Shown here: one piece after another, positions 12,662 through 25,186 of the stretch | How positions within the stretch are numbered: position 1 is the first letter of the stretch | Layout: every line of letters starts with the position of its first letter | Assembly: GCA_011884725.1 (NCBI GenBank) | Contig: GCA_011884725.1_3919.1 | Reading direction: 5' to 3' (one strand) | DNA from: a phage | DNA: 64,000 bases | Notes under the pieces: model-generated | Databases searched by the model: none | What the model was told of the DNA's origin: nothing | The model's input: only the letters and a program-made list of their open reading frames with translations | Translations under genes and position numbers: made by a program

Positions 12662-12693
12662 CCTTAGAAAATAAAAAAGGCTCCCGAAGGAGC
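12662..12693 (-). terminator. intrinsic terminator after endolysin gene
   Basis: Minus strand reads GGCTCCTTCGGGAGCC followed by TTTTTTATTTT. Confidence 0.6.
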
Positions 12694-12704
12694 CTATGAA
12701 GATA

Positions 12705-14717: not shown

Positions 14718-15308
14718 TTAAGCTTTGGTCTTAAGTAGGTTCTTAAGTTTTTTAAGATTCATACTCTCATCAAACTTAAAACCAAATCCATTGACATAAT
14801 CAATGAACTCGGATTTCTTACTGAGTGACAATGCGTAACTCATATCAAAGTTCTTGCTTGTTTCTGCGTCTGGACTAGAGTTCACATCAAATGAAATTTC
14901 CGTAGGCTCTTGCTTACTTTTTCTCATATTATCAACCAACAAACATGTATAGTTTGCTGGATAGAAATTTACACTACCATCAACGTAGCTATACTTATTA
15001 TTATGGACAAGGTTGGAAAATACCTTAAGGAATGTTTCTGAGTCGTGGCAAACAAGTTTGAATTGGCTGCTCTCTCCAAGCGCAACTAATGAATACGGAC
15101 TTTCACTATCGAAGTGATAATTTGGATTCGATGCCGTTACTGTTACACGCATCAAGTTATTAGCAATAGTCTTCTGTTTAAAAGAATTTTGAACATAGTG
15201 AAGACCTCTATCACACTGATTGACTAGCTCTTTAAGTAGGTCATTTGCATAAGGTGAGTTAATTGATACAGAGCCATCACTATTGTAATTAAAACTTACT
15301 GTTAACAT
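14718..15308 (-). CDS. hypothetical protein
   Basis: 196-aa ORF. Confidence 0.65.
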   Translation of the reverse strand: MLTVSFNYNSDGSVSINSPYANDLLKELVNQCDRGLHYVQNSFKQKTIANNLMRVTVTASNPNYHFDSESPYSLVALGESSQFKLVCHDSETFLKVFSNLVHNNKYSYVDGSVNFYPANYTCLLVDNMRKSKQEPTEISFDVNSSPDAETSKNFDMSYALSLSKKSEFIDYVNGFGFKFDESMNLKKLKNLLKTKA

Positions 15309-15535
15309 TTTTCAGTTCTCCTGCGATTTATAATTTTGCTGCAATAGAGAAACGAAGTAAACTCACTGGAAGAAACCATTAAGTGTTGTTCACTAGATTG
15401 AGCCATTGCCCTGAAATACATTCCAGTCAAAGCATCATAGTGACTATTCTTTCCAATTGAGGTTATATAGCCATGACTCTTTGCAGTTTGATATAAATCT
15501 ATAATATCTGCGATTTCTAATTGGGAACTACACAT
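15302..15535 (-). CDS. hypothetical protein
   Basis: 77-aa ORF. Confidence 0.5.
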   Translation of the reverse strand: MCSSQLEIADIIDLYQTAKSHGYITSIGKNSHYDALTGMYFRAMAQSSEQHLMVSSSEFTSFLYCSKIINRRRTEKC

Positions 15536-15678
15536 AGATAATCCTCTTGTCTTCTGTAATTTTGAAAGAACAGGTACAGACCAATTTCAGAGGATGAATA
15601 GTAGATTAACTCTACCCTTTTTGATTCCTTACAGTGATTGGTATTCTTACCTTTCTTCGGTTTATTTGATTTTCTCAT
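15517..15678 (-). CDS. hypothetical small basic protein
   Basis: ATG at 15678 preceded by AAGGAGA; the listed 15699 start lacks an RBS. Confidence 0.35.
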   Translation of the reverse strand: MRKSNKPKKGKNTNHCKESKRVELIYYSSSEIGLYLFFQNYRRQEDYLCVVPN

Positions 15679-15772
15679 TAAGTCTCCTTTGTAGAACAAG
15701 GCAGACCTACAGCTTTAACTAAGATGGTACAGTAATCCATACAACAAGTCAAGAACTATTGCAAGTTAAAAA

Positions 15773-15797
15773 AGTTGTTGACAAAGTACTTGACAAG
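15773..15797. promoter_or_regulatory. conserved dual-TTGACA motif in divergent promoter region
   Basis: GTTGACAAAGTACTTGACAAGGTG; a 23/24-identical copy lies at 56832-56856 in the other divergent intergenic region. Confidence 0.55.
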
Positions 15798-15927
15798 GTG
15801 TAGGCTTATAAATACTTAGAAGATAACTTAAAAGGTTCCTCTAAAAAGGCTATTTAAACAGATATCTTTCTGGATATCTATCTTTTATCTTAAAAGCCTT
15901 TTAAGAGGTCTTATAAGAGGCATACCA

Positions 15928-16299
15928 ATGAAAAACAGAACAAACAAAGGCCAGTTTAAAAAAGGCCAGTCTGGAAACCCATCTGGAAGACCGAAAGGCT
16001 CACGTAACAAAAGTTCACTCGTAAAAGCTCAACTGACCATTGATAATTCTGCTGAGTTTGCTGCAAAGTTGTTTGAAGCGATTGTTACAAGGGACGCTGC
16101 TAAGCTTGCAGAGTTCGGGTTAAACACAGACGATGTAACCATCAAGAGCATGATTGAAGTCGGTAAAACCATCATGACTCACTCAGCAGGTGAGATGAAA
16201 GCAATTGCAGCAGACACTAAGAAGACCCCTGATAACGGTGGTCAGTCTCAGACAGATAACAAACCAACGTTCTCTGCTGTTGCAACCCTCAAAAAATAA
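15928..16299 (+). CDS. hypothetical protein with basic Gly/Pro-rich N-terminus
   Basis: 123 aa; KGQSGNPSGRPKGSRNK motif, possibly nucleic-acid binding; family not identified. Confidence 0.6.
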   Translation: MKNRTNKGQFKKGQSGNPSGRPKGSRNKSSLVKAQLTIDNSAEFAAKLFEAIVTRDAAKLAEFGLNTDDVTIKSMIEVGKTIMTHSAGEMKAIAADTKKTPDNGGQSQTDNKPTFSAVATLKK

Positions 16300-16311
16300 T
16301 TTTAAAAGGTG

Positions 16312-16341
16312 TTGACAGACTCTACAAAGTTGCTCTAAAGT
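16312..16341 (+). promoter_or_regulatory. possible promoter
   Basis: TTGACA (16312-16317) with TAAAGT-like -10. Confidence 0.35.
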
Positions 16342-16380
16342 CTGTCACATCAAACAACAAATGAGAGAAGAGAGTAAAAT

Positions 16381-17796
16381 ATGAGCGAATTATTTAAACA
16401 TGCGCACCTTCATGCAGGTCGAACTGAAAATGGTGCTGTAAACCATACTTCATCAATGTCTGCTCTTGTAGACTTTTACAAAGCTGCTGGTTCAAGCCGT
16501 AGCAATGTAGAAATCTTACCAGACCTGTTCTACAAAGCTTTGCGTGAGGATGTTGATGTTGCAGTTCGTATTTTACTGCATATGCGAGATGTACGAGAAG
16601 GTATGGGTGAGCGTAAAGCCTTCAGAACTGTTTTACTTCAAGCGATTGAAGACAAAGTTTTAGAGCCTACGCAGGTTCTTCGCATTATGGATAAGATTGC
16701 AGAACTTGGTCGTTTTGATGACTTCAAAATCTTTGTAGGTACTCGTTTCGAGACAGATGCCTTCAAGCATTTAGAAGCAGCATTACTAGACCCTGCAACA
16801 GCAGGTTTGGCAGCTAAGTGGTTACCACGAGTCAAACCACGTCATAAGCAGTTTGTAAAACGTTTCTGCAAGTTTGCCAACTTGAGCGAGAAAGAGTACC
16901 GCACACTGTTGTCTGCACTATCTGATACAGTTGAGCAAAAAATCTCTGCTAATGAGTTTGGTAAGATTGACTACAGTAAGATTCCTTCACTTGCTGCTGC
17001 ACGCTACCAAAAACTGTTTAACCGTAAAGATGGAGAGCGATACAAAGCTTACATCGAGTCCTTATCAAAGGGTGAGGCTAAGATTAATGCTGGTGCTGTT
17101 TACCCATACGATGTGATTAAATCTGTCAAGCATGGTAATGCAGATGTTGCTAATGAGCAGTGGAAAGCACTACCAAACTGGATGGCAGAAGGTGAAAACA
17201 TCTTGTGTATGTCTGATGTATCAAGTTCAATGTCTTGGGTGAATTTTGGCTCCATTACTGCTCTGGATATTGGTGTATCACTTGCCTTGTATGTAGCAGA
17301 ACGCAATACAGGCTGCTTTAAGAATGAGTTGATGGTTTATTCAACAAACCCTCACTTCATCGAACTGAGTGGTGATTTACGAAACCGTCATCGTCAGGTG
17401 ATGCGACACGTTGAATATGGCTCAACTAACTTACAAGCAGCTTTTGACCGCATTCTTGAAACAGGTAAAAGAAACAACTTGACTCAGAAAGATATGCCAA
17501 GTAAGCTTATCATCTTCTCCGATATGGAGTTCAATCAGGTTGATGGAGCTAACGGTCGTACAAACTTTGAAGCAATTCAGAGTAAGTACAAAAAAGCTGG
17601 ATATGAGATGCCACAACTGGTATTCTGGTACTTAGCAAACCGTAATGGTACTTGCGAAGTGTCTGTTAAGGATAACGGTGTAGCAATGGTATCTGGTTTC
17701 TCTCCAGCCACTTTAAAAGCTCTGCTTGGTGGTGAGAAGTTTGACCCAATCAGCGTAATGCTCAAAGCAGTAATGATTGACCGTTATATCTGGTAA
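16381..17796 (+). CDS. vWA-domain protein with helical N-domain (possible TROVE/Ro60-like architecture)
   Basis: 471 aa; C-terminal vWA with MIDAS-like DVSSSMS (DxSxS) and downstream T and D positions (IIFSDMEF); helical N-domain of about 270 aa; sits directly upstream of the tRNA array. Confidence 0.7.
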   Translation: MSELFKHAHLHAGRTENGAVNHTSSMSALVDFYKAAGSSRSNVEILPDLFYKALREDVDVAVRILLHMRDVREGMGERKAFRTVLLQAIEDKVLEPTQVLRIMDKIAELGRFDDFKIFVGTRFETDAFKHLEAALLDPATAGLAAKWLPRVKPRHKQFVKRFCKFANLSEKEYRTLLSALSDTVEQKISANEFGKIDYSKIPSLAAARYQKLFNRKDGERYKAYIESLSKGEAKINAGAVYPYDVIKSVKHGNADVANEQWKALPNWMAEGENILCMSDVSSSMSWVNFGSITALDIGVSLALYVAERNTGCFKNELMVYSTNPHFIELSGDLRNRHRQVMRHVEYGSTNLQAAFDRILETGKRNNLTQKDMPSKLIIFSDMEFNQVDGANGRTNFEAIQSKYKKAGYEMPQLVFWYLANRNGTCEVSVKDNGVAMVSGFSPATLKALLGGEKFDPISVMLKAVMIDRYIW

Positions 17797-17814
17797 AAAG
17801 TTTTAAAAAGGGTA

Positions 17815-17843
17815 TTGACAATGTGTTTAATACCCTTTAATAT
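17815..17843 (+). promoter_or_regulatory. promoter of tRNA array
   Basis: TTGACA (17815-17820), 17-nt spacer, TAATAT (17838-17843); a second TTGACA lies at 17906. Confidence 0.6.
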
Positions 17844-17961
17844 GTTCTACATAGAAACGAAATGAGAGCTTTTCTAAGATACTGAAAAATATTTTAAAAA
17901 AGTTCTTGACAACCACTAAAAAATAATGTTAAAGTGGTTACATAGAGTTTGAAAAGTTTAT

Positions 17962-18038
17962 CTCTGTTTAGCTCAGCTTGGTAGAGCGTTCCGTTTGGGG
18001 CGGTAAGGCCGGAGGTTCAAGTCCTCCAACAGAGACCA
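17962..18038 (+). tRNA. tRNA-Pro (anticodon TGG)
   Basis: 7-bp acceptor CTCTGTT/AACAGAG, T-arm GGAGGTTCAAGTCCTCC, anticodon loop TTTGGGG, encoded CCA. Confidence 0.75.
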
Positions 18039-18045
18039 AATTAAT

Positions 18046-18123
18046 GTTCCAGTAGACAAAATGGTAAAGTCACCACTCTTTCAAAGTGGATATCTGAGGG
18101 TTCAAATCCCTTCTGGAACGCCA
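18046..18123 (+). tRNA. tRNA-Glu (anticodon TTC)
   Basis: Acceptor GTTCCAG/CTGGAAC, anticodon stem CCACT/AGTGG, loop CTTTCAA, T-loop TTCAAAT, CCA. Confidence 0.75.
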
Positions 18124-18126
18124 GTT

Positions 18127-18205
18127 TTGACAGAAGACCAATTACAGCAAACTTAATCTTATTCATCTGAAGGTAAATCGGACAAAGAAGAGATTTGGTC
18201 TGGTC
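18127..18205 (+). ncRNA. inter-tRNA structured element E1
   Basis: CAGAAGACC-box, helix AGACCAA (18135-18141) / TTGGTCT (18195-18201), TTACAGCAAA box inside. Confidence 0.5.
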
Positions 18206-18214
18206 ATTAAGAAT

Positions 18215-18291
18215 TGCGGGTATAGAGAAAGGGCGTCTCACATGTCTCATTAGCATGGTATCGGCAGGTTCGACTCCTGCACCCGCCTCCA
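18215..18291 (+). tRNA. tRNA-Met-like (anticodon CAT) with 1:72 mismatch
   Basis: Anticodon stem CATGT/GCATG, loop CTCATTA, T-arm GCAGGTTCGACTCCTGC, 3' ACCCGCC-T-CCA; 5' end TGCGGGT leaves position 1 unpaired. Confidence 0.6.
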
Positions 18292-18294
18292 AAT

Positions 18295-18365
18295 TTACAG
18301 AAGACCGTTTACAGCAAAATTGAATGAAATTTTTAGCGGAAAAATTGAAAGATACGGTCTGGTAA
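18295..18365 (+). ncRNA. inter-tRNA structured element E2
   Basis: Helix AGACCGT (18302-18308) / ACGGTCT (18354-18360); compensatory to E1; TTACAGCAAAA box. Confidence 0.5.
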
Positions 18366-18375
18366 TACTAAACAT

Positions 18376-18449
18376 GGTTAGGAAGCACATAAGGTATGTG
18401 CGGTCGCCTGTTAAGCGAATGGCACAGGGTTCGAATCCCTGACTAACCG
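18376..18449 (+). tRNA. tRNA-Asn (anticodon GTT)
   Basis: Acceptor GGTTAGG, D-stem GCAC/GTGC, anticodon loop CTGTTAA, T-arm CAGGGTTCGAATCCCTG; no encoded CCA. Confidence 0.65.
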
Positions 18450-18461
18450 CAAAATTGAAAT

Positions 18462-18549
18462 GTGTCGTTATCCCGTAGATGGTAGCGGTGGGGACTGTAA
18501 ATCCCTTGTCATTGAGACTCGGTAGGTTCGACTCCTACACGGCACACCA
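18462..18549 (+). tRNA. tRNA-Tyr (anticodon GTA), long variable arm
   Basis: Acceptor GTGTCGT/ACGGCAC, anticodon loop CTGTAAA, long variable arm, T-arm GTAGGTTCGACTCCTAC, CCA. Confidence 0.7.
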
Positions 18550-18554
18550 ATAAA

Positions 18555-18631
18555 GGCTATGTAGTTTAACTGGAGAAAATACTCCCCTGTCACGGGAGAT
18601 GATGTGAGTTCAAGTCTCATCGTAGCCGCCA
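18555..18631 (+). tRNA. tRNA-Asp (anticodon GTC)
   Basis: Acceptor GGCTATG/CGTAGCC, anticodon stem CTCCC/GGGAG, loop CTGTCAC, T-loop TTCAAGT, CCA. Confidence 0.75.
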
Positions 18632-18685
18632 AATTATAATAAGTATTTCAAAATGATGTTTTGAGAGGGCTATTTAGCCCCTCCC

Positions 18686-18716
18686 TTAAAGAGTTCTTAC
18701 GAGTATTCTTTAAAGG
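18686..18716 (+). ncRNA. hairpin with conserved TTCTTACGAG loop, copy 1
   Basis: TTAAAGAGTTCTTACGAGTATTCTTTAAAGG; second copy at 22027-22056 has a different but still complementary stem. Confidence 0.45.
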
Positions 18717-18795
18717 AGCAGAAGACCAAATACAGCAAGAATGTATGATATTTTCAAGCCAATCCAATTTTGAAAAAATTTAAAACTTGGTCTGG
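18717..18795 (+). ncRNA. inter-tRNA structured element E3
   Basis: CAGAAGACC box, helix AGACCAA (18723-18729) / TTGGTCT (18787-18793), ATACAGCAAG box. Confidence 0.5.
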
Positions 18796-18804
18796 CTCAA
18801 CAAA

Positions 18805-18939
18805 TTTACAGAAGACCGTTTACAGCAAAACTTAAACAATCTATTTCTCGGTAAAGAAAAGGCGAAGGTTCGATTCCTTCACTCGGCAGATGTCGAGTTG
18901 GTGTAATGGTAGCACTTAAGATGATAAACAACGGTCTGG
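18805..18939 (+). ncRNA. element E4 enclosing a tRNA-like module
   Basis: Helix AGACCGTT (18813-18820) / AACGGTCT (18930-18937); inside: T-arm GAAGGTTCGATTCCTTC, hairpin ACTCGGC-AGAT-GTCGAGT, D-arm-like GTGTAATGGTAGCAC. The order is 3'-half before 5'-half. Confidence 0.45.
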
Positions 18940-18940
18940 T

Positions 18941-19084
18941 AATTATCTTTGTAGATAAGTTATTAAGCTTACCTGTGAGTATGCGACCACAAAGGGTGAA
19001 AGGGTAAATTCTAGATTTAAACCCAAAAAGGCACATCGCTACAGACCTTAAGCAAGTCTGGGTAGCTTATCTACAAAGATAATT
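18941..19084 (+). ncRNA. structured RNA closed by a 19-bp perfect helix
   Basis: AATTATCTTTGTAGATAAG (18941-18959) is the exact reverse complement of CTTATCTACAAAGATAATT (19066-19084); inner hairpins include CAGAC/GTCTG. Confidence 0.5.
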
Positions 19085-19088
19085 TAAT

Positions 19089-19164
19089 GGAAGTGTAGCA
19101 GAATGGTGATGCGGCAGACTTTTAATCTGACAGGCGATGGGTTCGAATCCCTCCACTTCTACCA
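19089..19164 (+). tRNA. tRNA-Lys (anticodon TTT)
   Basis: Acceptor GGAAGTG/CACTTCT (G1.U72), anticodon loop CTTTTAA, T-loop TTCGAAT (weak T-stem), CCA. Confidence 0.65.
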
Positions 19165-19168
19165 ATAT

Positions 19169-19245
19169 GGTTCAGTCGCAGATAAGGTAATGCAAGGGTC
19201 TCATAAGCCCTATGAATGTGGGTTCGATTCCCATCTGAACCTCCA
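19169..19245 (+). tRNA. tRNA with CAT anticodon (elongator Met or Ile2-type)
   Basis: Acceptor GGTTCAG/CTGAACC fully paired, anticodon stem AGGGT/GCCCT, loop CTCATAA, T-loop TTCGATT, CCA. Confidence 0.65.
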
Positions 19246-19246
19246 A

Positions 19247-19322
19247 GCTGGTATAGTTAAGAAGGTTATAACACTCCCCTGATAAGGGAACATCGGTGGT
19301 TCGATTCCACCTACCAGTACCA
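19247..19322 (+). tRNA. tRNA-Ile (anticodon GAT)
   Basis: Acceptor GCTGGTA/TACCAGT, anticodon loop CTGATAA, T-arm GGTGGTTCGATTCCACC, CCA. Confidence 0.7.
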
Positions 19323-19337
19323 ATTTCAATAAAGTTG

Positions 19338-19366
19338 TTGACATTGAGATGTGACTACTTTATAGT
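19338..19366 (+). promoter_or_regulatory. internal promoter within tRNA array
   Basis: TTGACA (19338-19343), 17-nt spacer, TATAGT (19361-19366). Confidence 0.6.
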
Positions 19367-19568
19367 AACCTTAGTTTTCGTTGCGTAGCGTCTATTTTGC
19401 AAATTTAAAATAAATGCAAACGACAATGTTTTTCTGGCAGTAGCTTGATAGGCTAAACACCAGTGAGGTCTTCCAATCCCTCATCAAAGAATTTGGCGTA
19501 CTCGCCCACGGTATGATTAATAAGGTGGGCATCTTTAAGGGCTTTCTAAGAGAGTCTTTAAAGATAAT

Positions 19569-19645
19569 GCACCCTTAGTTCAATTGGATAGAGCAACGGT
19601 CTTCTAAATCGTTAGTTACAGGTTCGAATCCTGTAGGGTGTACCA
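19569..19645 (+). tRNA. tRNA-Arg (anticodon TCT)
   Basis: Acceptor GCACCCT/AGGGTGT, D-arm TAGTTCAATTGGATAGAGC, anticodon loop CTTCTAA, T-loop TTCGAAT, CCA. Confidence 0.75.
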
Positions 19646-19787
19646 AATAGTTAGCAGATTACTTAGACGGCCTTAGCGGGTCTTCCTGTAGGGAGGTGGT
19701 CTGTATCTCATGTTTTCCAGAACATGTAAATAATCTGAGAAGAAGCTTGACAGTGTTGAGATAACAGGGTAAGCTTCGAATTATAAT

Positions 19788-19870
19788 ATGGGACGATGTT
19801 AAGACTCTAAGGCATGAGCAACGGCCTCCAAAACCGTTTCAAAGGGGTTCAACTCCTCCGTCCCATGCCA
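19788..19870 (+). tRNA. atypical tRNA (anticodon probably CCA, Trp?)
   Basis: Acceptor ATGGGAC/GTCCCAT, T-loop TTCAACT, CCA; anticodon stem AACGG/CCGTT encloses 9 nt (CCTCCAAAA); D region is 4-8 nt longer than usual. Confidence 0.45.
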
Positions 19871-19883
19871 AAGTCTTATTAGG

Positions 19884-19971
19884 GGTAGGTAGCGGCTAAT
19901 GGTAGCCAAACTGTCTTGAAAACAGTTGCCACTGTAGAGATACGGTGAGGGTTCGACTCCTTTACTTACCG
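19884..19971 (+). tRNA. tRNA-Ser (anticodon TGA), long variable arm
   Basis: Acceptor GGTAGGT/ACTTACC, anticodon stem ACTGT/ACAGT, loop CTTGAAA, long variable arm, T-loop TTCGACT. Confidence 0.65.
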
Positions 19972-20126
19972 CCTAATAAGATTTACTCCGTCCATGCTTG
20001 TTCGCATTGTCGGTTTATCCCTCGTGTATTGTCGTACACTGTCAAAGCACCTAGTAGGTGTCACGGAGAAGAGATAATATCAAGCTCTCCAAAGGTTCTA
20101 GTCACCGGATTAAACAAGACTATGCA

Positions 20127-20151
20127 AAGACCTATTTAGGTCTTTTTAGAG
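20127..20151 (+). terminator. intrinsic terminator inside tRNA array
   Basis: AAAGACC-TATTTA-GGTCTTT followed by TTTAG. Confidence 0.5.
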
Positions 20152-20227
20152 GGCTTCTAAGGTTATTAGTCGCTTGTTGTGGAACCTTGTTGCTTAGGTT
20201 CTTAGAAGTTCTCTAAAAAGATTTAAT

Positions 20228-20305
20228 GGGAGATTGACGGTAATTGGTAAACCTACCATCCTTAGAAGTTGGTGTTTGAGGGTTCGAATCCCTTGTCTCC
20301 TACCA
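20228..20305 (+). tRNA. tRNA, class I shape, anticodon TAG (Leu?)
   Basis: Acceptor GGGAGAT/GTCTCCT, anticodon loop CTTAGAA, 5-nt variable loop, T-loop TTCGAAT, A73, CCA. Confidence 0.5.
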
Positions 20306-20312
20306 AATTAAT

Positions 20313-20388
20313 GCAGGTGTAGCAAAATGGTTATGCGGCTGACTCTTAATCAGTAAGACGATGGGTTCAATTCCCTCCACCTGTACCA
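20313..20388 (+). tRNA. tRNA-Lys (anticodon CTT)
   Basis: Acceptor GCAGGTG/CACCTGT, anticodon stem GCTGA/TCAGT, loop CTCTTAA, T-loop TTCAATT, CCA. Confidence 0.6.
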
Positions 20389-20394
20389 AACATT

Positions 20395-20470
20395 GGGGAT
20401 GTAGTTTACATGGTTAAAACATAAGTTTTGCAAACTTAAGTACAGGGTTCAATTCCCTGCTTCTCCACCA
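20395..20470 (+). tRNA. tRNA-Cys (anticodon GCA)
   Basis: Anticodon stem AAGTT/AACTT, loop TTGCAAA, T-arm CAGGGTTCAATTCCCTG, CCA. Confidence 0.65.
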
Positions 20471-20476
20471 ATTAGT

Positions 20477-20551
20477 GCATCCATAGTTTAAACGGGAAAA
20501 TTACAGTCTTCCAAACTGAGGTTGAGGGTTCGATTCCCTCTGGATGCTCCA
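20477..20551 (+). tRNA. tRNA-Gly (anticodon TCC)
   Basis: Acceptor GCATCCA/TGGATGC, anticodon loop CTTCCAA, T-loop TTCGATT, CCA. Confidence 0.65.
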
Positions 20552-20557
20552 AACAAT

Positions 20558-20634
20558 GCTGCTTTCGTATAATTGGCTATTACACATCCCTTGTAAGGAT
20601 GGAAATGCAGGTTCGAGTCCTGTGAGCAGCACCA
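20558..20634 (+). tRNA. tRNA-Thr (anticodon TGT)
   Basis: Acceptor GCTGCTT/GAGCAGC, anticodon stem CATCC/GGATG, loop CTTGTAA, T-loop TTCGAGT, CCA. Confidence 0.7.
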
Positions 20635-20635
20635 A

Positions 20636-20730
20636 TTCAGAGGTCAAGTGAAAGACCGCTTTGAGTCAACTGAAGACCGTAACAAATACCACGGAGTTGA
20701 GTTAGCGGCACAACTTCAGACCTCTTTCAT
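20636..20730 (+). ncRNA. structured spacer element between tRNA-Thr and tRNA-Val
   Basis: Closing helix CAGAGGTC (20638-20645) / GACCTCTT (20722-20729); contains a GAAGACCGT box as in E2/E4; no T-loop. Confidence 0.4.
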
Positions 20731-20805
20731 ACTCGCTTAGTTTATATGGTAAAACATCACCCTTACAAGATGAAGAAAAAGGTTCAAGTCCTTTAGTGAG
20801 TACCA
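20731..20805 (+). tRNA. tRNA-Val (anticodon TAC)
   Basis: Acceptor ACTCGCT/AGTGAGT, anticodon loop CTTACAA, T-arm AAAGGTTCAAGTCCTTT, CCA. Confidence 0.6.
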
Positions 20806-20806
20806 T

Positions 20807-20884
20807 GTTCCAGTATCCCAATTGGCAGAGGATGCAAGCTCAAACCTTGTATTAGTGACGGTTCGAATCCGTCTTGGAACACCA
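20807..20884 (+). tRNA. tRNA, class I shape, anticodon CAA (Leu?)
   Basis: Acceptor GTTCCAG/TTGGAAC, anticodon stem GCAAG/CTTGT, loop CTCAAAC, T-arm GACGGTTCGAATCCGTC, A73, CCA. Confidence 0.5.
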
Positions 20885-20889
20885 ATTTT

Positions 20890-20965
20890 GCAGGATTAGT
20901 TCAAATGGAAAGAGCAACAGTCTACGAAGCTGTTAATAGGGGTTCGAATCCCTTATCCTGCGCCA
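20890..20965 (+). tRNA. tRNA-Arg (anticodon ACG)
   Basis: Acceptor GCAGGAT/ATCCTGC, D-stem GTTC/GAGC, anticodon stem ACAGT/GCTGT, loop CTACGAA, T-loop TTCGAAT, CCA. Confidence 0.75.
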
Positions 20966-20982
20966 GATAAAAAGGTGATACT

Positions 20983-21225
20983 ATGCAAACATTAACAGTA
21001 GTTGAACATGAAAACTGTGAGAGTATTGAGTTTGTCAGGGTCATTGGTGTTGAACACCACATTTTCTTAAAAGTGGGATACTTATGTGACCCCGCTAGAG
21101 TAGAAAGATTTATACGTGATTGTTTTGGTGGTAGACATCTGAAGAGTGTTATTTTTGAGACAGTTTTACCAGAAGGTTTAGAAACGAATAATAACATTTA
21201 CCTCCTTACGAGGATTAGACAATGA
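20983..21225 (+). CDS. hypothetical protein embedded in tRNA array
   Basis: 80-aa ORF; RBS AAAGGTGA 7 nt upstream of ATG. Confidence 0.5.
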   Translation: MQTLTVVEHENCESIEFVRVIGVEHHIFLKVGYLCDPARVERFIRDCFGGRHLKSVIFETVLPEGLETNNNIYLLTRIRQ

Positions 21226-21779
21226 GATACTTAAAGTATGCTTCATGGATTTTCTTAGCTTTGTTAGAGCCATTTGCAGCAATCTTAGCAGTTATCTTAG
21301 CACCTTTTGTAGTTCCATTCTACAGTGAGAAGAAAGGACACTTACCTTTCGGGTTCAGATGGATGGAGACATATGACAACCCAATTGATGGTGATGAAGG
21401 TCACGTTAAAAGATGGGCTAATATTAGATGGATTGGTAAACTAGGTGTCTACATGCAAAGAGTCGGATGGCTCTGGAGAAACAAAGCTTATAACTTCTCT
21501 TACCATGTATTAGGAAGAGATGTAAGAGATGTTACTAAGTGGAAAGGTAATATCAACGTAAGTTCTAACCCTGAAGATAATCAGACTGGTTATCTCCTAA
21601 TGTGGAACAGTAATGCTTGGGGATTATTCGCTTTTATCCCATCAATTAAAGTCTTCGGTAAACAGTTTTACTGGAGAATTTATGTTGGATGGAAACTTAA
21701 AAGTGTTGTCCCAGAAGAAAGAGCATTCTCAAGGGAAAGAGTTATGTTGGCATTCTTTATTCATCCACTGAGAAAGTAA
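21222..21779 (+). CDS. hypothetical membrane protein embedded in tRNA array
   Basis: 185 aa; N-terminal TM segment (WIFLALLEPFAAILAVILAPFVVPF); start overlaps previous stop; RBS GAGGA. Confidence 0.6.
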   Translation: MRYLKYASWIFLALLEPFAAILAVILAPFVVPFYSEKKGHLPFGFRWMETYDNPIDGDEGHVKRWANIRWIGKLGVYMQRVGWLWRNKAYNFSYHVLGRDVRDVTKWKGNINVSSNPEDNQTGYLLMWNSNAWGLFAFIPSIKVFGKQFYWRIYVGWKLKSVVPEERAFSRERVMLAFFIHPLRK

Positions 21780-21787
21780 AGATTTAA

Positions 21788-21863
21788 AGGGGATTAGTTT
21801 ACAAGGTTAAAACCTCGGTCTTTGAAATCGAAGAAGTTGGTTCAATTCCAACATCCCCCGCCA
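21788..21863 (+). tRNA. tRNA-Gln (anticodon TTG)
   Basis: Anticodon stem TCGGT/ATCGA, loop CTTTGAA, T-arm GTTGGTTCAATTCCAAC, 3' ATCCCCC-G-CCA; position 1 (A) unpaired with C72. Confidence 0.6.
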
Positions 21864-21865
21864 AT

Positions 21866-21944
21866 GCTCCATTACTCCAATTGGCAGAGAGGCCAGACTT
21901 AAAATCTGTGTTATGTATCGGTTCGAATCCGATATGGAGTACCA
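21866..21944 (+). tRNA. tRNA, class I shape, anticodon TAA (Leu?)
   Basis: Acceptor GCTCCAT/ATGGAGT, anticodon loop CTTAAAA, T-arm ATCGGTTCGAATCCGAT, A73, CCA. Confidence 0.5.
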
Positions 21945-21949
21945 AATTT

Positions 21950-22025
21950 AGCGGTATAGCATAACTGGCAATGCAGCAGTCTCTGAAGCTGTCCTATTAA
22001 GGTTCAAATCCTTATGCCGCTGCCA
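21950..22025 (+). tRNA. tRNA-Gln (anticodon CTG)
   Basis: Acceptor AGCGGTA/TGCCGCT, D-stem GCAT/ATGC, anticodon stem GCAGT/GCTGT, loop CTCTGAA, T-loop TTCAAAT, CCA. Confidence 0.6.
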
Positions 22026-22026
22026 C

Positions 22027-22056
22027 TTCTAAGGATTCTTACGAGAGTCCTTAAAT
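22027..22056 (+). ncRNA. hairpin with conserved TTCTTACGAG loop, copy 2
   Basis: TTCTAAGGATTCTTACGAGAGTCCTTAAATG; stem TAAGGATTC/GAGTCCTTA. Confidence 0.45.
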
Positions 22057-22132
22057 GTGGCCTTATCATAAATGGTAATGACCCATGCTGTGAACATGGT
22101 CTATACGGGTTCAAATCCCGTAGGTCACCCCA
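22057..22132 (+). tRNA. tRNA-His (anticodon GTG)
   Basis: Acceptor GTGGCCT/AGGTCAC, anticodon stem CCATG/CATGG, loop CTGTGAA, T-arm ACGGGTTCAAATCCCGT, CCA. Confidence 0.7.
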
Positions 22133-22138
22133 ATTTAT

Positions 22139-22214
22139 AGTCCAAGTAGCTTATATGGTTAAAGCGCGTGTCTGAAAAACATGAGAAGAGGGTTCAAATC
22201 CCACTGGACTACCA
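22139..22214 (+). tRNA. tRNA-Phe (anticodon GAA)
   Basis: Acceptor AGTCCAA/CTGGACT, anticodon stem CGTGT/ACATG, loop CTGAAAA, T-loop TTCAAAT (short T-stem), CCA. Confidence 0.6.
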
Positions 22215-22230
22215 ATTTCAAAGGTGCTTA

Positions 22231-22965
22231 ATGAAAGAGATGACAGAACAAGGTAAGGAGATTTTCAATCTCTTAAAAACCGGTAAAGGGTTTTCTAACC
22301 CCCTTATTACTGGTGCAGCAGTTCTCGGTGGAACCGTAGCTGCCTCTACATCACTTGTAAGCTCTATTAGCTCTGTATCAGACCCTACAGTAAAGGATAA
22401 GCTTGTTGCTGCTGGACTTACAACAGTTCTGCTTAACAGCTTTACCACGAGTCTGACAAGCACTACATCAACTACCAAAACACTAACAGATTACGGTCAA
22501 AAGTCCATTGATGAGTTTTCATCACGTATGCAGGTAGCAAAAGGTTACTCTAATGTTATGGGTGCAGCAGGTGAACAAGTTGGCTGTACACCATTTAGTG
22601 GTATTATGGGTGTTGCTACAGAGTATGGTCAAAAAACTATTGATACGATTAACAGTGTACTAGATAGTGTTAATGGTGTGTTAAGTGACTTACAAGATGC
22701 TATTGACAAAGGTCTTGATACTATTTCTGATTTAGCTGAGCAAGCTGTTAGTAAGATTAATGAAGGTATTTCAAAAATTACAGCTTATGCAGATGAAGTT
22801 GTGCAGATGATTGAAGAAGAAGCTGCTCTTATTGCAGAGTACCTTAAAACGAATATCAATGGGTTCTTAGCAGGTATCTTACCAGACTGGTTTGATGATG
22901 CTTGTAAAACTGGTGTAATTGACACTATTGCAACACCAGAAATGAAGAACGCATTACAGAAATAA
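22231..22965 (+). CDS. hypothetical protein (Ser/Thr-rich N-half, helical C-half)
   Basis: Listed ORF starts at 22168 inside tRNA-Phe; in-frame ATG at 22231 with RBS AAAGG chosen. Confidence 0.55.
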   Translation: MKEMTEQGKEIFNLLKTGKGFSNPLITGAAVLGGTVAASTSLVSSISSVSDPTVKDKLVAAGLTTVLLNSFTTSLTSTTSTTKTLTDYGQKSIDEFSSRMQVAKGYSNVMGAAGEQVGCTPFSGIMGVATEYGQKTIDTINSVLDSVNGVLSDLQDAIDKGLDTISDLAEQAVSKINEGISKITAYADEVVQMIEEEAALIAEYLKTNINGFLAGILPDWFDDACKTGVIDTIATPEMKNALQK

Positions 22966-22967
22966 AT

Positions 22968-23060
22968 GGAAGATTAACCCTAAAAGGTAAGGGAGCAGTT
23001 TGCTAAACTGCCAGTAGCTGAGAAATCGGTGTACCAGTTCAAGTCTGGTATCTTCCTCCA
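22968..23060 (+). tRNA. tRNA-Ser (anticodon GCT), long variable arm
   Basis: Acceptor GGAAGAT/ATCTTCC, D-stem CCC/GGG, anticodon stem GCAGT/ACTGC, loop TTGCTAA, long variable arm, T-arm ACCAGTTCAAGTCTGGT, CCA. Confidence 0.7.
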
Positions 23061-23064
23061 ATTT

Positions 23065-23140
23065 GAATCCGTGACAGAAACGGCTATGTGCCTGTCTGCA
23101 AAACAGGTTTATAAGGGTTCGAGTCCCTTCGGATTCTCCA
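23065..23140 (+). tRNA. tRNA with GCA anticodon (second Cys-like)
   Basis: Acceptor GAATCCG/CGGATTC, anticodon stem CCTGT/ACAGG, loop CTGCAAA, T-arm AAGGGTTCGAGTCCCTT, CCA; atypical D-arm. Confidence 0.5.
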
Positions 23141-23177
23141 AGTTATTTTACTCTCTCTCAATTAAAATAATAATAAT

Positions 23178-23237
23178 GCCCTGCTATAAGTATTCTTCCT
23201 TTCGCTACCGAAGAGTATTTTTAGACAGGGCTTTTTT
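23178..23237 (+). terminator. terminator after tRNA array
   Basis: GCCCTG .. CAGGGC followed by TTTTTT. Confidence 0.5.
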
Positions 23238-23303
23238 ACAGAGTTATACTTTATAGGAAGACTTATACAGTATGTCTCTGACGTACATTGTGGTTTCTCC
23301 TTG

Positions 23304-23331
23304 ACGGTCTCTGTGCCGTCTTTTTTAAGGG
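23304..23331 (+). terminator. intrinsic terminator
   Basis: GACGG-TCTCTGTG-CCGTC followed by TTTTTT. Confidence 0.55.
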
Positions 23332-23362
23332 GAAACATGATTAACTATTTGGAGAAAACATA

Positions 23363-23563
23363 ATGAGCGAGACCGTTTATAAAGAACTTTATGAAGCTAA
23401 TAAAAAGCTAGAATTTATGCAGAATACTATCATGGCAATTGCAGACAGATTGTCTGTAGCAACAGGTATTGATATTAAAGAAGCATCTATGGATGCACTT
23501 CTTGATGCTGTTGATGCAAAGTTCGAAGTTAAGAAAGAAGAGACTGCTACAGACTCTGAATAA
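23363..23563 (+). CDS. hypothetical small protein upstream of terminase
   Basis: 66-aa acidic ORF with RBS GGAGAAAACATAATG. Confidence 0.5.
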   Translation: MSETVYKELYEANKKLEFMQNTIMAIADRLSVATGIDIKEASMDALLDAVDAKFEVKKEETATDSE

Positions 23564-23584
23564 TTCTATTTGCGGAGGTGCTTA

Positions 23585-25186
23585 ATGGACTTAAATGCTG
23601 TTAAGCAGAAGCGAGTGGAAGATGTTAGGAAAGTCCTAGCTGGAGAGTTGGGGCTTTCTGATGAAGTAAAAGAAATTATTAAATCATTCGGTAAAGACCC
23701 CTCTAAATTCCTTCCAACTCAAATTCTGACTTTATTAAGATACACACCAGACCAAGTTCGCCTTATCTTTAAATTGATGACTGATAAGAATTATGTAGCC
23801 CCTCAGCCGGGTTCTCAAGAGGTCTTTTTAAATACTAATGCTGACTTGGTTCTCTATGGTGGTGCTGCGGGTGCTGGTAAGACTGCTGCATTGTTAATGG
23901 ACTCTTTAAGGTTTATTGATGACCCTAATTATAATGCTGTATATTTCCGTCGAAATACAACACAGCTACAAGGTGGTTTGTGGCCTGCTGCAAAGAAACT
24001 ATTTGGTAAGTTTGGTGGGGTTCCTCACGAGCAGAAGATGACTATCACATTCCCTTCTGGGGCAACTATCAAGTTTACCTATCTAGAGCTTGAAAAGCAC
24101 GCTGAAGGTCATCAGGGTATTGAGTATTCAGCTATTTACTTTGACGAAGGTACTCACTTCTCTGCTTCACAGATTTCATACCTACAGACTCGTCTACGTT
24201 CTGGGGCTGAAGGTGATTCATACATGAAGATTTCTATGAACCCAGACAGAGACCACTTTATTTACGATTGGGTAGAACCATTCTTAGATGAAGAAGGTTA
24301 CCCAGACCCTGAAAAGTGTGGTCGTATTCGTTGGTATGTAATGAATGATGGTGTTATGGTTTCTGATTGGGAGAGAGACAAGATTCTTGAAATGTTTCCT
24401 CTTGAGATTCCTCAAACATATACATTCATCTCTGGTACGATTGATGATAACCCAATTCTTGACTTCTTAGAACCTAAATATCGTGGTAAGTTGGAAAACA
24501 ACACCCCTGTAAACGTTGCAAGACTTCGTTTCGGTAACTGGAAGGCTCGTGCAGAAGGTTCAAACTATTGGCAAAGACAATGGTGTGAAATTGTTGATTC
24601 ACTCCCAGAAGATGTATTCGATGTCAGAGCATGGGACTTAGCAGCAACTTTACCATCTGAGATTAACCCTAACCCAGACTGGACAGCAGGTGTTAAGATG
24701 GGTAAATCTAAAAAAGACGGTTGCTATTATATCATTGATGTAGTAAGATTTAGAGATAGACCCTCTGGAGTCGAAACACAAATTAATTTGACTGCTGAAA
24801 GTGACGGTAAGCGAACTGGTATTTTTATCCCTCAAGACCCAGGCGCTGCTGGTAAATCCTACGCAACATCCCTCATCAGGAAACTTGCCGAGAAAGGTTA
24901 TCGAGCAAGAGCTAAACCAACAAATAAAGACAAAGTTACCCGATTTGCGGGGTTTTCTGCTGCTTCTGAAGCTGGACTTGTAAAAGTCTTGAGAGGTAGT
25001 TGGAACGAAGCTTACTTTCAAGAACTTGAAGGTTTTTGTGGTGATGGTAAAACTAAAGATGACCAAGTGGATGCTACCAGTGATGCTTTCAACAGTCTTA
25101 ACGAAGTTAAATTATTCAAGCCACCATCAATGGGTGCTCACACAGACTTAGTGAGAGGAAACCCATATGAGGGGCTTAGACGTTGA
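23585..25186 (+). CDS. terminase large subunit
   Basis: Walker A LVLYGGAAGAGKT, ATPase and nuclease-domain acidic residues; ATG at 23585 follows RBS GGAGG. Confidence 0.9.
   Translation: MDLNAVKQKRVEDVRKVLAGELGLSDEVKEIIKSFGKDPSKFLPTQILTLLRYTPDQVRLIFKLMTDKNYVAPQPGSQEVFLNTNADLVLYGGAAGAGKTAALLMDSLRFIDDPNYNAVYFRRNTTQLQGGLWPAAKKLFGKFGGVPHEQKMTITFPSGATIKFTYLELEKHAEGHQGIEYSAIYFDEGTHFSASQISYLQTRLRSGAEGDSYMKISMNPDRDHFIYDWVEPFLDEEGYPDPEKCGRIRWYVMNDGVMVSDWERDKILEMFPLEIPQTYTFISGTIDDNPILDFLEPKYRGKLENNTPVNVARLRFGNWKARAEGSNYWQRQWCEIVDSLPEDVFDVRAWDLAATLPSEINPNPDWTAGVKMGKSKKDGCYYIIDVVRFRDRPSGVETQINLTAESDGKRTGIFIPQDPGAAGKSYATSLIRKLAEKGYRARAKPTNKDKVTRFAGFSAASEAGLVKVLRGSWNEAYFQELEGFCGDGKTKDDQVDATSDAFNSLNEVKLFKPPSMGAHTDLVRGNPYEGLRR

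Follow-up and report, generated by a model that had tools for sequence, protein, structure and literature searches.

Conserved UACG-capped hairpins in the tRNA array of a Felixounavirus genome and their possible role as portable RNA punctuation

Why should two spacers of a phage tRNA array hold hairpins that share their tip but not their stems? The question arises from the window analysed here, a stretch of 64,000 nucleotides that is the genome of a Felixounavirus (Felix O1-like). Its array consists of 26 tRNAs, every one on the + strand, and a Ro60-like ORF (16381-17796) lies directly 5' of it (PMC11482910). The original prediction described two hairpins with an identical loop on differing stems, each directly 3' of a tRNA, and suggested that they may be processing or recognition signals. 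The features needed to follow the argument are these:

ending at 18631, + strand: tRNA-Asp
18664-18685, + strand: neighbouring hairpin GAGAGGGCUAUUUAGCCCCUCC, read from the sequence, directly 5' of site 1
18681-18718, + strand: site 1 hairpin, fold of -12.6 kcal/mol, z = -3.1
19531-19565, + strand: hairpin I3, with 16-17 pairs and its end 3 nt short of the next tRNA
starting at 19569, + strand: tRNA-Arg(TCT)
20136-20226, + strand: long hairpin I1, an inverted repeat with 26-nt arms, ending 1 nt before the next tRNA
starting at 20228, + strand: tRNA-Leu(TAG)
21203-21214, + strand: doubtful third copy TCCTTACGAGGA, 4-bp stem, -4.3 kcal/mol
ending at 22025, + strand: tRNA-Gln(CTG)
22026-22056, + strand: site 2, fold of -11.6 kcal/mol, z = -3.4
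starting at 22057, + strand: tRNA-His

The identical segment is real: TTCTTACGAG occurs exactly at 18694-18703 and at 22036-22045 on the + strand. It is not, however, an 11-nt loop as first thought. Both minimum-energy folds, which are better than those of shuffled sequences, have a UACG tetraloop (18698-18701 at site 1, 22040-22043 at site 2, with the loop A at 18699 and 22041), and the shared 10-mer is made up of four nucleotides of the 5' arm, the tetraloop and two nucleotides of the 3' arm. The loop thus conforms to the UNCG pattern (a four-base U-N-C-G loop). The C-G closing pair that gives cUNCGg its extra stability is absent from both sites, where the closing pair is U-A and the second pair C-G. 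The 8-mer CTTACGAG occurs six times in the window against 0.83 expected, a count that was reached in none of 100 shuffles.

The stems are indeed unlike in sequence and in both cases complementary, but they are longer than initially described. Site 1 has 15 pairs in 17-nt arms with three interruptions, laid out as CUCC-C-UUAAAGAGU-U-CU [UACG] AG-U-AUUCUUUAA-A-GGAG. Site 2 takes up the entire 31-nt spacer between tRNA-Gln(CTG) and tRNA-His; its hairpin proper (22030-22053) has a 10-bp stem (22030-22039/22044-22053) with the arms TAAGGATTCT/AGAGTCCTTA and one G.U pair. This stem begins 4 nt past tRNA-Gln(CTG) and stops 3 nt before tRNA-His, so that the placement directly 3' of a tRNA holds for site 2. 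It does not hold for site 1, which is separated from tRNA-Asp by 49 nt containing the hairpin at about 18664-18685. The latter overlaps with its 3' end the outer CUCC of site 1, is conserved together with site 1 in relatives and is not followed by a U-run. At its other side, site 1 ends with base 18718, immediately before a repeated small-RNA module that starts at 18719 and may be a Y-like RNA.

Two further hairpins of the array, I3 and I1, belong to the same set, I1 by resemblance and position only. I3 closes a tmRNA-like segment, and its tip, UUUCUAAGAGAG, is in Felix-like phages a decayed form of the motif; the ortholog in an Erwinia phage reads AAAGGTTCTTACGAGAGTCTTT. At this locus the genera have the tRNA-adjoining stem in common but differ in the tip: wobble/Watson-Crick changes are found in Sf15, and the Moogle I3 keeps the base of the stem with a long insert at the tip. 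I1 has CUUCUAAGG in common with site 2, and part of its 5' arm also belongs to a hairpin that resembles a terminator, AAAGACCTATTTAGGTCTTTTT. G.U pairs give I3 and I1, among the four hairpins of the array, a far more stable fold on the + strand (-16.8 against -4.6 kcal/mol on the - strand for I3; -37.7 against -24.6 kcal/mol, z -7.1, for I1). For site 1 the minus-strand fold in the window is as good as the + fold, which counts against a sense-strand reading. Each of the four hairpins stops 0-3 nt short of the RNA unit that follows (starting at 18719, 19569, 20228 and 22057).

The search for the motif genome-wide and in related phages, proposed at the outset as a check, revealed both further copies and conservation. 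The hairpins are conserved across Ounavirinae genera with compensatory changes, copies being kept in Felixouna-, Moogle-, Susp- and Kolesnikvirus and in a Yersinia phage. Among 16 distinct sequences, 88% of cells pair, compared with 36-59% when partners are slid, and 8 of the 13 pairs have changed on both sides. Site 1 is nearly invariant in Felixouna-, Moogle- and Suspvirus; its relatives display the compensatory path A-U to G.U to G-C. Site 2 varies in relatives by A-U/G.U and G.U to A-U exchanges, none of its variants there contains a pair-breaking change, and one change in the flank lengthens the stem. The sole loop change seen is UACG to UGCG, in two independent cases (site 2 of phage Barry and site 1 of the relative L106). 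Whereas the outer stems vary, the tip, the closing pairs and the U.G-containing upper stem stay constant.

Copies are not confined to Ounavirinae. About 105 phiEco32-like podoviruses (Kuravirus) carry the 22-nt core of site 2 unchanged, so that two unrelated phage families sharing a host have the same core. The phiEco32-like copy, an 11-bp helix, lies just past the stop codon of a protein gene, with no tRNA beside it. Contigs L035, L127 and L090 carry hairpins with the 16-nt apex core on different outer stems, in L035 and L127 within the untranslated region beside a gene start; this apex core is absent from E. coli genomes. In contigs other than the phiEco32-like ones, the hairpin either has a capsid gene terminator on one side and the next ribosome-binding site on the other, or it precedes a gene. 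Copies outside the array share the sense strand with the genes around them. A second hairpin is often found beside the element, and the extended Erwinia copy stops 1 nt before a tRNA-Leu. The search pattern preset the inner stem, and the conservation of this stem outside Ounavirinae is therefore partly circular. The hairpin is a conserved RNA-level structure that has spread to unrelated coliphages.

What might such a structure do? We give nearly even chances to the idea that the hairpins act as portable sense-strand RNA punctuation and end-protecting elements, with the tip under sequence constraint. The element would be a stem-loop on the same strand as the tRNAs, with an A/U-rich stem of 10-17 bp capped by U-[UACG]-A and then C-G. 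In a long tRNA/small-RNA precursor it would fold the final ~30 nt of each such spacer into a closed helix, its base 0-3 nt away from where the following RNA begins, and would thereby keep spacer RNA from pairing with adjacent tRNAs. A cut by RNase P at the next tRNA would leave the upstream fragment ending in a hairpin with an overhang of 1-3 nt, which 3' exonucleases should handle poorly; the upstream RNA would therefore be capped, or its trimming delayed. A protein probably reads the tip as well, since its sequence persists whatever the stem. We only infer the steps involving RNase P, exonucleases and protein recognition. Several considerations go against punctuation: a leader helix 1-3 nt from an RNase P site might hinder cleavage rather than help it, the capped RNA at site 2 would be pre-tRNA-Gln, whose trailer must be removed, and the copies outside tRNA arrays show that the element needs no RNase P site nearby in order to work. 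Were stability the only role, the phage's usual cUUCGg loop would be expected, and nearest-neighbour tables do not list a U-A closing pair with the contexts that make UNCG extra-stable. The suggested processing or recognition signals survive as conserved RNA-level structures on the tRNA-coding strand with bases 0-4 nt from mature RNA ends, but not as signals specific to the preceding tRNA 3' end, given the 49-nt distance at site 1 and the tRNA-free phiEco32-like copies.

Short stem-loops of this kind have precedents. Intercistronic C(UUCG)G hairpins of T4-type phages, reportedly described by Tuerk et al. in 1988, are likewise short, stable, sense-strand stem-loops in untranslated phage RNA, with a U-N-C-G loop that varies at position 2 (here UACG/UGCG). 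The hairpins described here differ in their U-A instead of C-G closing pair and their A/U-rich stems, in abutting tRNA 5' ends and in the recurrence of tip and upper stem in unrelated phage families. T4-type phages also have PeSL elements, portable stem-loop cassettes at gene-module junctions. By their usual description, these too are short conserved hairpins that sit at mosaic junctions and recur within and between phage genomes, whereas our hairpin comes without an attached promoter.

Alternatively, the element might be the binding site of a trans-acting host or phage protein (other than the deaminase TadA discussed below) that recognizes tip and upper stem, comparable to boxB/N or to coat-protein operators, and controls transcript stability, translation or antitermination. 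The constancy of tip, closing pairs and U.G-containing upper stem over varying outer stems agrees with this, as do the 22-nt identity between unrelated families with a common host and the copies in untranslated regions by gene starts (L035, L127). Nonetheless, we regard it as unlikely: a candidate protein common to these phages was not found as far as tested, the inner-stem conservation outside Ounavirinae is in part a product of the search, and loss of the tip is tolerated at the I3 locus.

It is similarly improbable that the hairpin imitates the anticodon loop of tRNA-Arg(ACG) as a portable module shared by unrelated coliphages. Its tip UUACGAG would then be bound by TadA, the tRNA adenosine deaminase of the host, and would either be edited to inosine at the loop A (18699 and 22041) or hold the enzyme. 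Enterobacterales tRNA-Arg(ACG) is a TadA substrate, and the identified hosts are all Enterobacterales. TadA requires a stem-loop with UACG in its loop, and YUACGAA is the extended motif (PMC5630033, PMC12255301). The resemblance to its substrates, the tRNA-Arg(ACG) anticodon arm and editing sites in bacterial mRNAs, consists of gammaproteobacterial hosts, a UACG core placed by the predicted folds of sites 1 and 2 with its A in the hairpin loop, and a heptamer fitting at six of seven positions. All true copies contain UUACGAG, including that of Yersinia phage P778 (in a different register of the stem), and both loop changes (Barry site 2, L106 site 1) are A-to-G at the A that would be edited. 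However, these changes fit a purely structural constraint equally well, because position 2 of UNCG is expected to vary freely. The final G is another difficulty: G-ending edited bacterial sites exist (one TTACGAG and five CTACGAG in a published table) but are rare, 6 against 68 TTACGAA, and in hokB and trpD editing was lost or almost lost whenever a single position of the motif, the last A among them, was mutated (PMC12255301). Moreover, a 7-nt loop on a 5-bp stem is not what the folds predict: the tip is a closed 4-nt tetraloop (6 nt with the U-A pair open), and two bases of the motif are paired. The sites here are non-coding, the benefit of editing such a loop is not evident, and the resemblance was picked up after several others had been tried. 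If true, no earlier non-coding RNA element of a phage would be known to target a tRNA-editing enzyme of the host; alternatively, such a mimic could serve as a decoy for Arg-tRNA-directed anticodon nucleases.

Another candidate is RNase III, which could cleave the polycistronic precursor inside the helix. The host has RNase III, phage transcripts contain double-stranded segments, I1 has 26-nt arms, and site 2 with its flanks can gain a lower stem of 5 bp beyond a 3x3 internal loop (inverted repeat I2). Typical E. coli RNase III substrates extend over about two helical turns. The helices of site 2 (10 bp) and phiEco32 (11 bp) fall short of the length of a T7 R1.1-type site, the lower stem of site 2 would consist of tRNA acceptor-stem bases, and T7 R sites are not resembled. 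We find cleavage of this kind quite unlikely.

There is little to recommend a functionless relic or hitch-hiker spread by recombination between co-infecting phages, for instance through junction microhomology. Since the upstream sequence differs between phiEco32-like isolates, their hairpin stands at a mosaic junction; the 22-nt cross-family identity suggests recent transfer, and the I3 copy has decayed in Felix-like phages. Yet pairing is under selection, as the compensatory changes and the wobble intermediates show, and copies have been retained in the four genera and the Yersinia phage.

Just as weak is the case for a recognition site of the phage's Ro60-like protein, the hairpin then being part of Y-RNA-like partners. 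The Ro60-like gene is immediately 5' of the array (PMC11482910), site 1 abuts the possible Y-like module, and P778 has gene, module and hairpin at the corresponding place. The adjacency holds in Felix-like phages but not in phiEco32: phiEco32-like phages have the hairpin with no Ro60-like gene annotated in phiEco32, and Erwinia phage phiEa21-4 has a copy without such a gene beside its array. In bacterial Y RNAs the Ro60-binding helix is bulged and has GNCGAAN0-1G on its 5' strand; this motif is absent from the hairpins, which have CGAG in the loop and 3' arm.

It is also very improbable that the hairpins serve within the array as intrinsic terminators or attenuators. The P778 copy is followed by TTTTTT, a second hairpin frequently adjoins, and in other phage contigs the same stem with a cUACGg or cUUCGg loop and a U-run makes ordinary terminators. 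On the other hand, AGCAGAAG follows the stem of site 1 and AAAUGUGG that of site 2, and neither these nor the Erwinia, phiEco32, L035 and L127 copies have a U-run. A terminator scan called neither site, and tRNA genes begin at most 3 nt downstream. The published Felix O1 terminators are G+C-rich, cUUCGg-capped and U-tailed, with none in the tRNA array (Table 2, PMC3185647). The hairpins described here resemble them in standing, with UNCG loops, at the ends of transcription or processing units, and differ in the lack of a U-run, the A/U-rich stems and a functional gene 0-3 nt downstream. A DNA-level palindrome (operator, nuclease target or cruciform) is the least credible explanation: the sites are imperfect inverted repeats in DNA, but their half-sites are not identical, pairing needs G.T positions, the changes among variants run by way of G.U intermediates, the pairing of I3 and I1 is far better in + strand RNA, and copies beyond the array keep to the sense strand of neighbouring genes.

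An Rfam scan of 15000-25000 at E <= 1 matched none of these hairpins to a family, the overlaps being with microRNA-precursor models only: 24.7 bits against a gathering threshold of 92 at site 2 (22011-22072, minus strand) and 29.7 against 52 at I1 (20132-20232). The third CTTACGAG of the array (21205-21212) is probably not a family member. It lies inside ORF 20983-21225, which is absent in Barry and PC79-13, and the hairpin around it overlaps the ribosome-binding site of ORF 21222-21779; in two relatives, L015 and L016, the motif is lost by a synonymous change of ACG to ACA.

The array analysed here is that of a Felixounavirus (Felix O1-like, Ounavirinae), since the best Megablast matches of 17900-23200, among 311 phage records matched, are the Escherichia phages Ro111lw, typing phage 1 and wV8 (95-97% identity). 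Its 26 tRNA genes, every one on the + strand (17962-23140, ARAGORN), are for the most part separated by 1-11 nt; a few spacers are long (84-457 nt) and one is of 31 nt. Annotators usually divide phage tRNA arrays into tRNAs and 'spacers'. The spacers of this array hold a conserved RNA element, a family of hairpins of which two are tipped by UACG; it is unannotated in any record and missing from both Rfam and the Felix O1 genome paper (PMC3185647). Ranked by length, the top four inverted repeats in the array are:

18681-18718, + strand: site 1, a hairpin of 15 pairs with three interruptions (-12.6 kcal/mol, z -3.1); next unit, a repeated module, at 18719
19531-19565, + strand: hairpin I3 (-16.8 kcal/mol on +, -4.6 on -); next unit, tRNA-Arg, at 19569
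20136-20226, + strand: hairpin I1 (-37.7 kcal/mol on +, -24.6 on -); next unit, tRNA-Leu, at 20228
22026-22056, + strand: site 2, a hairpin with a 10-bp stem (-11.6 kcal/mol, z -3.4); next unit, tRNA-His, at 22057

In all four cases the next RNA unit lies 0-3 nt beyond the hairpin, site 1 ending one base ahead of its module. I3 and I1 are similar in sequence to site 2 (UAAGG..UUCU..AGAGUC..UUAAA; CUUCUAAGG) and, owing to G.U pairs, fold far more stably on the + strand than on the other. Exact copies of TTCTTACGAG begin at 18694 and 22036 (+ strand), so the original prediction of a shared sequence stands, but not all of it is loop: since both predicted folds give a UACG tetraloop closed by U-A with C-G next, the 'identical loop' is loop plus stem top. 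The claim that both hairpins directly follow a tRNA is likewise right for site 2, which fills the Gln(CTG)-His spacer from 4 nt 3' of tRNA-Gln to 3 nt 5' of tRNA-His, but not for site 1, which lies 49 nt past tRNA-Asp with a second hairpin in between.

The proposed search for the loop motif covered the window and related phages: CTTACGAG is enriched (6 copies in the window versus 0.83 expected, with 0 shuffles reaching 6), and the hairpins are conserved across Ounavirinae genera. The third copy, at 21205, was not counted as a family member because it has a 4-bp stem only, lies inside an ORF (20983-21225) and is lost in two relatives via a synonymous change. Enrichment was absent for CTATTTAG as a loop common to neighbouring hairpins. 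Nor does the window make wide use of UNCG hairpins: a search for long-stemmed ones returned, besides site 2, only two:

12678-12695, minus strand: terminator-type UNCG hairpin
33350-33371: UCCG hairpin of 9 pairs

Another sequence, CTTCTAAG, is present in 15 copies on both strands of the window (4.2 expected; 0 shuffles reach 15), 4 of the 15 being in or beside array hairpins (20154, 20201, 20261, 22026).

Site 2 is found in Felixouna-, Moogle- and Suspvirus. Its variants (A-U/G.U, G.U to A-U, a flank change that gives a 14-bp stem and, in phage Barry, UGCG in place of UACG) include no broken pair. Site 1 is nearly unchanged across relatives, yielding one UGCG variant (in the relative L106) and a full compensatory path from A-U (most genomes) through G.U (L020 type) to G-C (L011 type). 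Over 16 distinct sequences, a set partly chosen for pairing, 88% of cells pair in the proposed helix versus 36-59% with slid partners, and 8 of the 13 pairs have changes on both sides. Because of how this set was chosen, the within-lineage changes are the cleaner evidence. The hairpin is clearly a sense-strand RNA structure selected for pairing. In Erwinia phage phiEa21-4 the I3 ortholog reads AAAGGTTCTTACGAGAGTCTTT and ends beside tRNA-Leu; by this sequence comparison, I3 is therefore to be regarded as a decayed copy of the site 1/site 2 element. At the I3 locus, Moogle retains the stem base with a long insert in place of the tip. Yersinia phage P778 carries AGAATCCTTTTACGAGGGTTCT at the site 1 position, just past tRNA-Asp, with a different stem and register, and Pectobacterium phage Wc4-1 has no copy of the element.

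To look beyond this subfamily, we scanned IMG/VR for TTCTTACGAGAGTC and then required extra pairing outside the pattern. Most of the matches listed are chance occurrences in coding DNA; among the same listed matches, several unrelated contigs stand out on extra pairing:

phiEco32-like podoviruses: 11 pairs, past a stop codon
L035, a phage contig: 12 pairs, between the terminator of a capsid-like gene and the next ribosome-binding site
L127, a 266-kb Erwinia jumbo phage: 9 pairs, 5' of a gene
L090, a phage contig: 16 pairs, within a tail-protein ORF

The estimated number of chance hits is ~0.7 with at least 9 pairs and ~0.1 with at least 11 pairs. With the loop left free, Felix- and phiEco32-type contigs gave TTACGA 37 times and TTGCGA once. 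Site 1-type sequence was absent outside Felix-like phages, the remaining hits being chance matches, and identical stems with cUACGg or cUUCGg and a U-run are ordinary terminators in other phages. According to BLAST of a 30-mer, AAGGATTCTTACGAGAGTCCTT is identical in the window and in ~105 Kuravirus (phiEco32-like) genomes, and no record matched has an annotation at the element itself. In phiEco32 the single copy, whose loop A is near 65015, lies on the sense strand directly after gene 101, in a 290-nt gap and with no tRNA alongside. Kuravirus isolates differ in the sequence 5' of the hairpin, which places the hairpin at a mosaic junction. The element is a portable part, working in several genomic settings, and the identity of 22 nt in a second, unrelated E. 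coli phage family points to a reusable RNA part that uses host RNA machinery. A host origin was rejected, as none of 5,426 E. coli genomes has a match; a set of 185,579 genomes, one per bacterial species, gave 19 scattered hits, none enterobacterial, which is not above chance expectation. Other features of the phiEco32 gap (24742-25030 of its contig, minus strand; genome 64742-65030) are a second hairpin (GATAGGA...TCCTATC), more G+C-rich stems and a terminator-like GGGAGGATTCGCCCCCTCCC with a T-rich stretch after it, a composition that suggests a small non-coding RNA or regulatory region.

What is constant in the array is position: the end of the spacer is closed at the 5' end of the next RNA. 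For this reason we favour a role of the element as punctuation of the tRNA/small-RNA precursor. The helix would block mispairing of spacer RNA with tRNAs, and an RNase P cut would leave the upstream fragment ending in a hairpin with a 1-3 nt overhang, an end on which we infer 3' exonucleases to act poorly. Inefficient attack on a 3' hairpin with a short overhang is an established property of RNase II, PNPase and RNase R. The RNA capped would be the tmRNA-like transcript at I3 and pre-tRNA-Gln at site 2; removal of hairpin trailers from tRNAs is known in E. coli (PMC2811032, PMC2241853). If the element caps or delimits RNAs, it would account for order in long tRNA/small-RNA precursors. Punctuation leaves unexplained why the same tip sits on different stems and why the usual UUCG loop of the phage is not used.

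The tip itself might be read by TadA as an A-to-I editing motif, which we consider rather unlikely. TadA needs a YUACGAA anticodon-loop motif in a stem-loop to edit tRNA-Arg2 and bacterial mRNAs (PMC5630033, PMC12255301); the tip UUACGAG differs from it by one base, and a few G-ending sites are edited in bacteria. However, in two test genes editing was abolished by a single mutation at any of the motif positions (PMC12255301), and the predicted loop is a closed tetraloop. The two A-to-G loop variants are equally predicted by a plain UNCG constraint and are neutral in this respect. Should TadA read the tip, phage infection would be tied to bacterial A-to-I editing, which would appear in RNA-seq as an A-to-G mismatch at two known positions (18699 and 22041).

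Several other identities were considered. The helices of site 2 and phiEco32, at 10-11 bp, are short for an RNase III site. Against a terminator, a U-run follows the Yersinia copy only and the hairpins are unlisted in the terminator scan; the terminators tabulated for Felix O1 include none within the array and are G+C-rich with a cUUCGg cap and a U-tail (PMC3185647). As a nut-like boxA/boxB, the hairpins have a boxA-like UCUUUAA in their 3' arms, placed inside the helix, and a loop that is not GNRA-like. As for a CRISPR repeat mimic, the minus strand does end in UUAGAAG, resembling a type I-F repeat handle, but the array is transcribed from the + strand, and stem and loop are unlike that repeat. 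The match of UACGAGAG between site 2 and the sarcin-ricin loop of 23S rRNA is coincidental, because site 1 has UACGAGUA instead and the bases of the bulged-G motif are missing. In the true tRNA register of a Val or Arg anticodon arm, examined by hand, the stems are unpaired with a 7-nt loop; the hairpins do not bound the HNH endonuclease insertion of wV8, which is elsewhere, beside the pseudo-tRNA/tRNA-Ser; and the Ro60 CGAA motif is absent from them. The Rfam scan overlapped them solely with microRNA-precursor models, at scores far under gathering. The element was likewise not found in the searchable literature on Felix O1 stem-loops, phage tRNA-array spacers, phiEco32 hairpins, or TadA and phage. 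It belongs with the familiar stable intercistronic phage hairpins, among which it stands out for a conserved tip, the absence of a U-run, a setting against tRNA 5' ends and occurrence in unrelated coliphages.

Several further features were noticed in and near the array. tRNA-His (22056-22132, +) has U at position -1 (A in the relative L011), not G, opposite C73, and therefore no encoded G-1, on which E. coli HisRS depends; the gene is annotated as a pseudo-tRNA in Felix O1 and wV8. The stretch 19790-19864 (+), between tRNA-Arg and tRNA-Ser, lacks an ARAGORN call, matches the tRNA-Sec model weakly (23 bits) and is probably a decayed tRNA. The counterpart of this Arg-Ser stretch in wV8 carries a pseudo-tRNA annotation, immediately followed by an HNH endonuclease gene. 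Otherwise empty tRNA spacers are filled by a four-copy module, and a protein gene lies directly upstream of the array:

16381-17796, + strand: 471-aa protein with DUF2828 and DUF7788
18131-18203, + strand: module, first copy
18298-18362, + strand: module, second copy
18719-18795, + strand: module, third copy
18809-18939, + strand: module, fourth copy

The window has exactly four copies of the 20-nt module motif CAGAAGACC-NNN-TACAGCAA, each with GGTCTGG 64-120 nt further on; AGACC+NNN pairs with NNN+GGTCT, the NNN covarying between copies (CAA/TTG versus CGT/ACG). In Yersinia phage P778 this design recurs with GGACT.../...AGTCC. The protein is annotated as 'RNA-binding protein' in relatives and has no sequence match among solved structures; its homolog gp130 of phage Bas63 is reportedly Ro60-like by structure and counters the Ppl defence system (PMC11482910). 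The modules may be Y-RNA-like partners of this upstream-encoded Ro60-like protein. Within the fourth module, 18862-18915 (+) is a tRNA-like domain with permuted parts, running from the T arm through acceptor 3' strand ACTCGGC, loop AGAT and acceptor 5' strand GTCGAGT to the D arm. Both Moogle (ACCCTTC...GAAGGGT, with GCCA) and Sf15 show covariation in its closed acceptor stem. The domain has no Rfam match. A tmRNA part and the tRNA-like domain of YrlA-type Y RNAs (PMC4201824) are equally close likenesses: in Moogle, ARAGORN joins the permuted domain and a tag segment as a permuted tmRNA (contig L002, 2478-3226), and an ssrA call is mentioned in the Moogle and Mushroom genome notes.

The corresponding tmRNA-like messenger segment of the window (~19373-19568, +), missed by ARAGORN, is preceded by a strong promoter of sigma-70 type (19338-19366; P45 in the Felix O1 paper). 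Its tag frame (19413-19448), AAAUAAAU GCA AAC GAC AAU GUU UUU CUG GCA GUA GCU UGA UAG, encodes ANDNVFLAVA; relative to the window, Erwinia phiEa21-4 (ANDAQFLAVA) has four synonymous, one stop-to-stop and two replaced codons, and the two hairpins 3' of the tag covary between these phages. A structured RNA of ~150 nt (18938-19086, +) has a 20-bp closing stem, TAATTATCTTTGTAGATAAG / CTTATCTACAAAGATAATTTA, and stops 3 nt short of tRNA-Lys; covariation in this stem is seen in Moogle, Sf15 and PC79-13 (TGCAGTGAC / GTTACTGCA). Finally, promoter-like TTGACA lies inside perfect or near-perfect hairpins at 17807-17843 and 16312-16347 (+; AAAGGGTATTGACAATGTGTTTAATACCCTTT; TGACAGACTC...GTCTGTCA), the former being the two-way terminator t42/t43 of the Felix O1 paper (PMC3185647).
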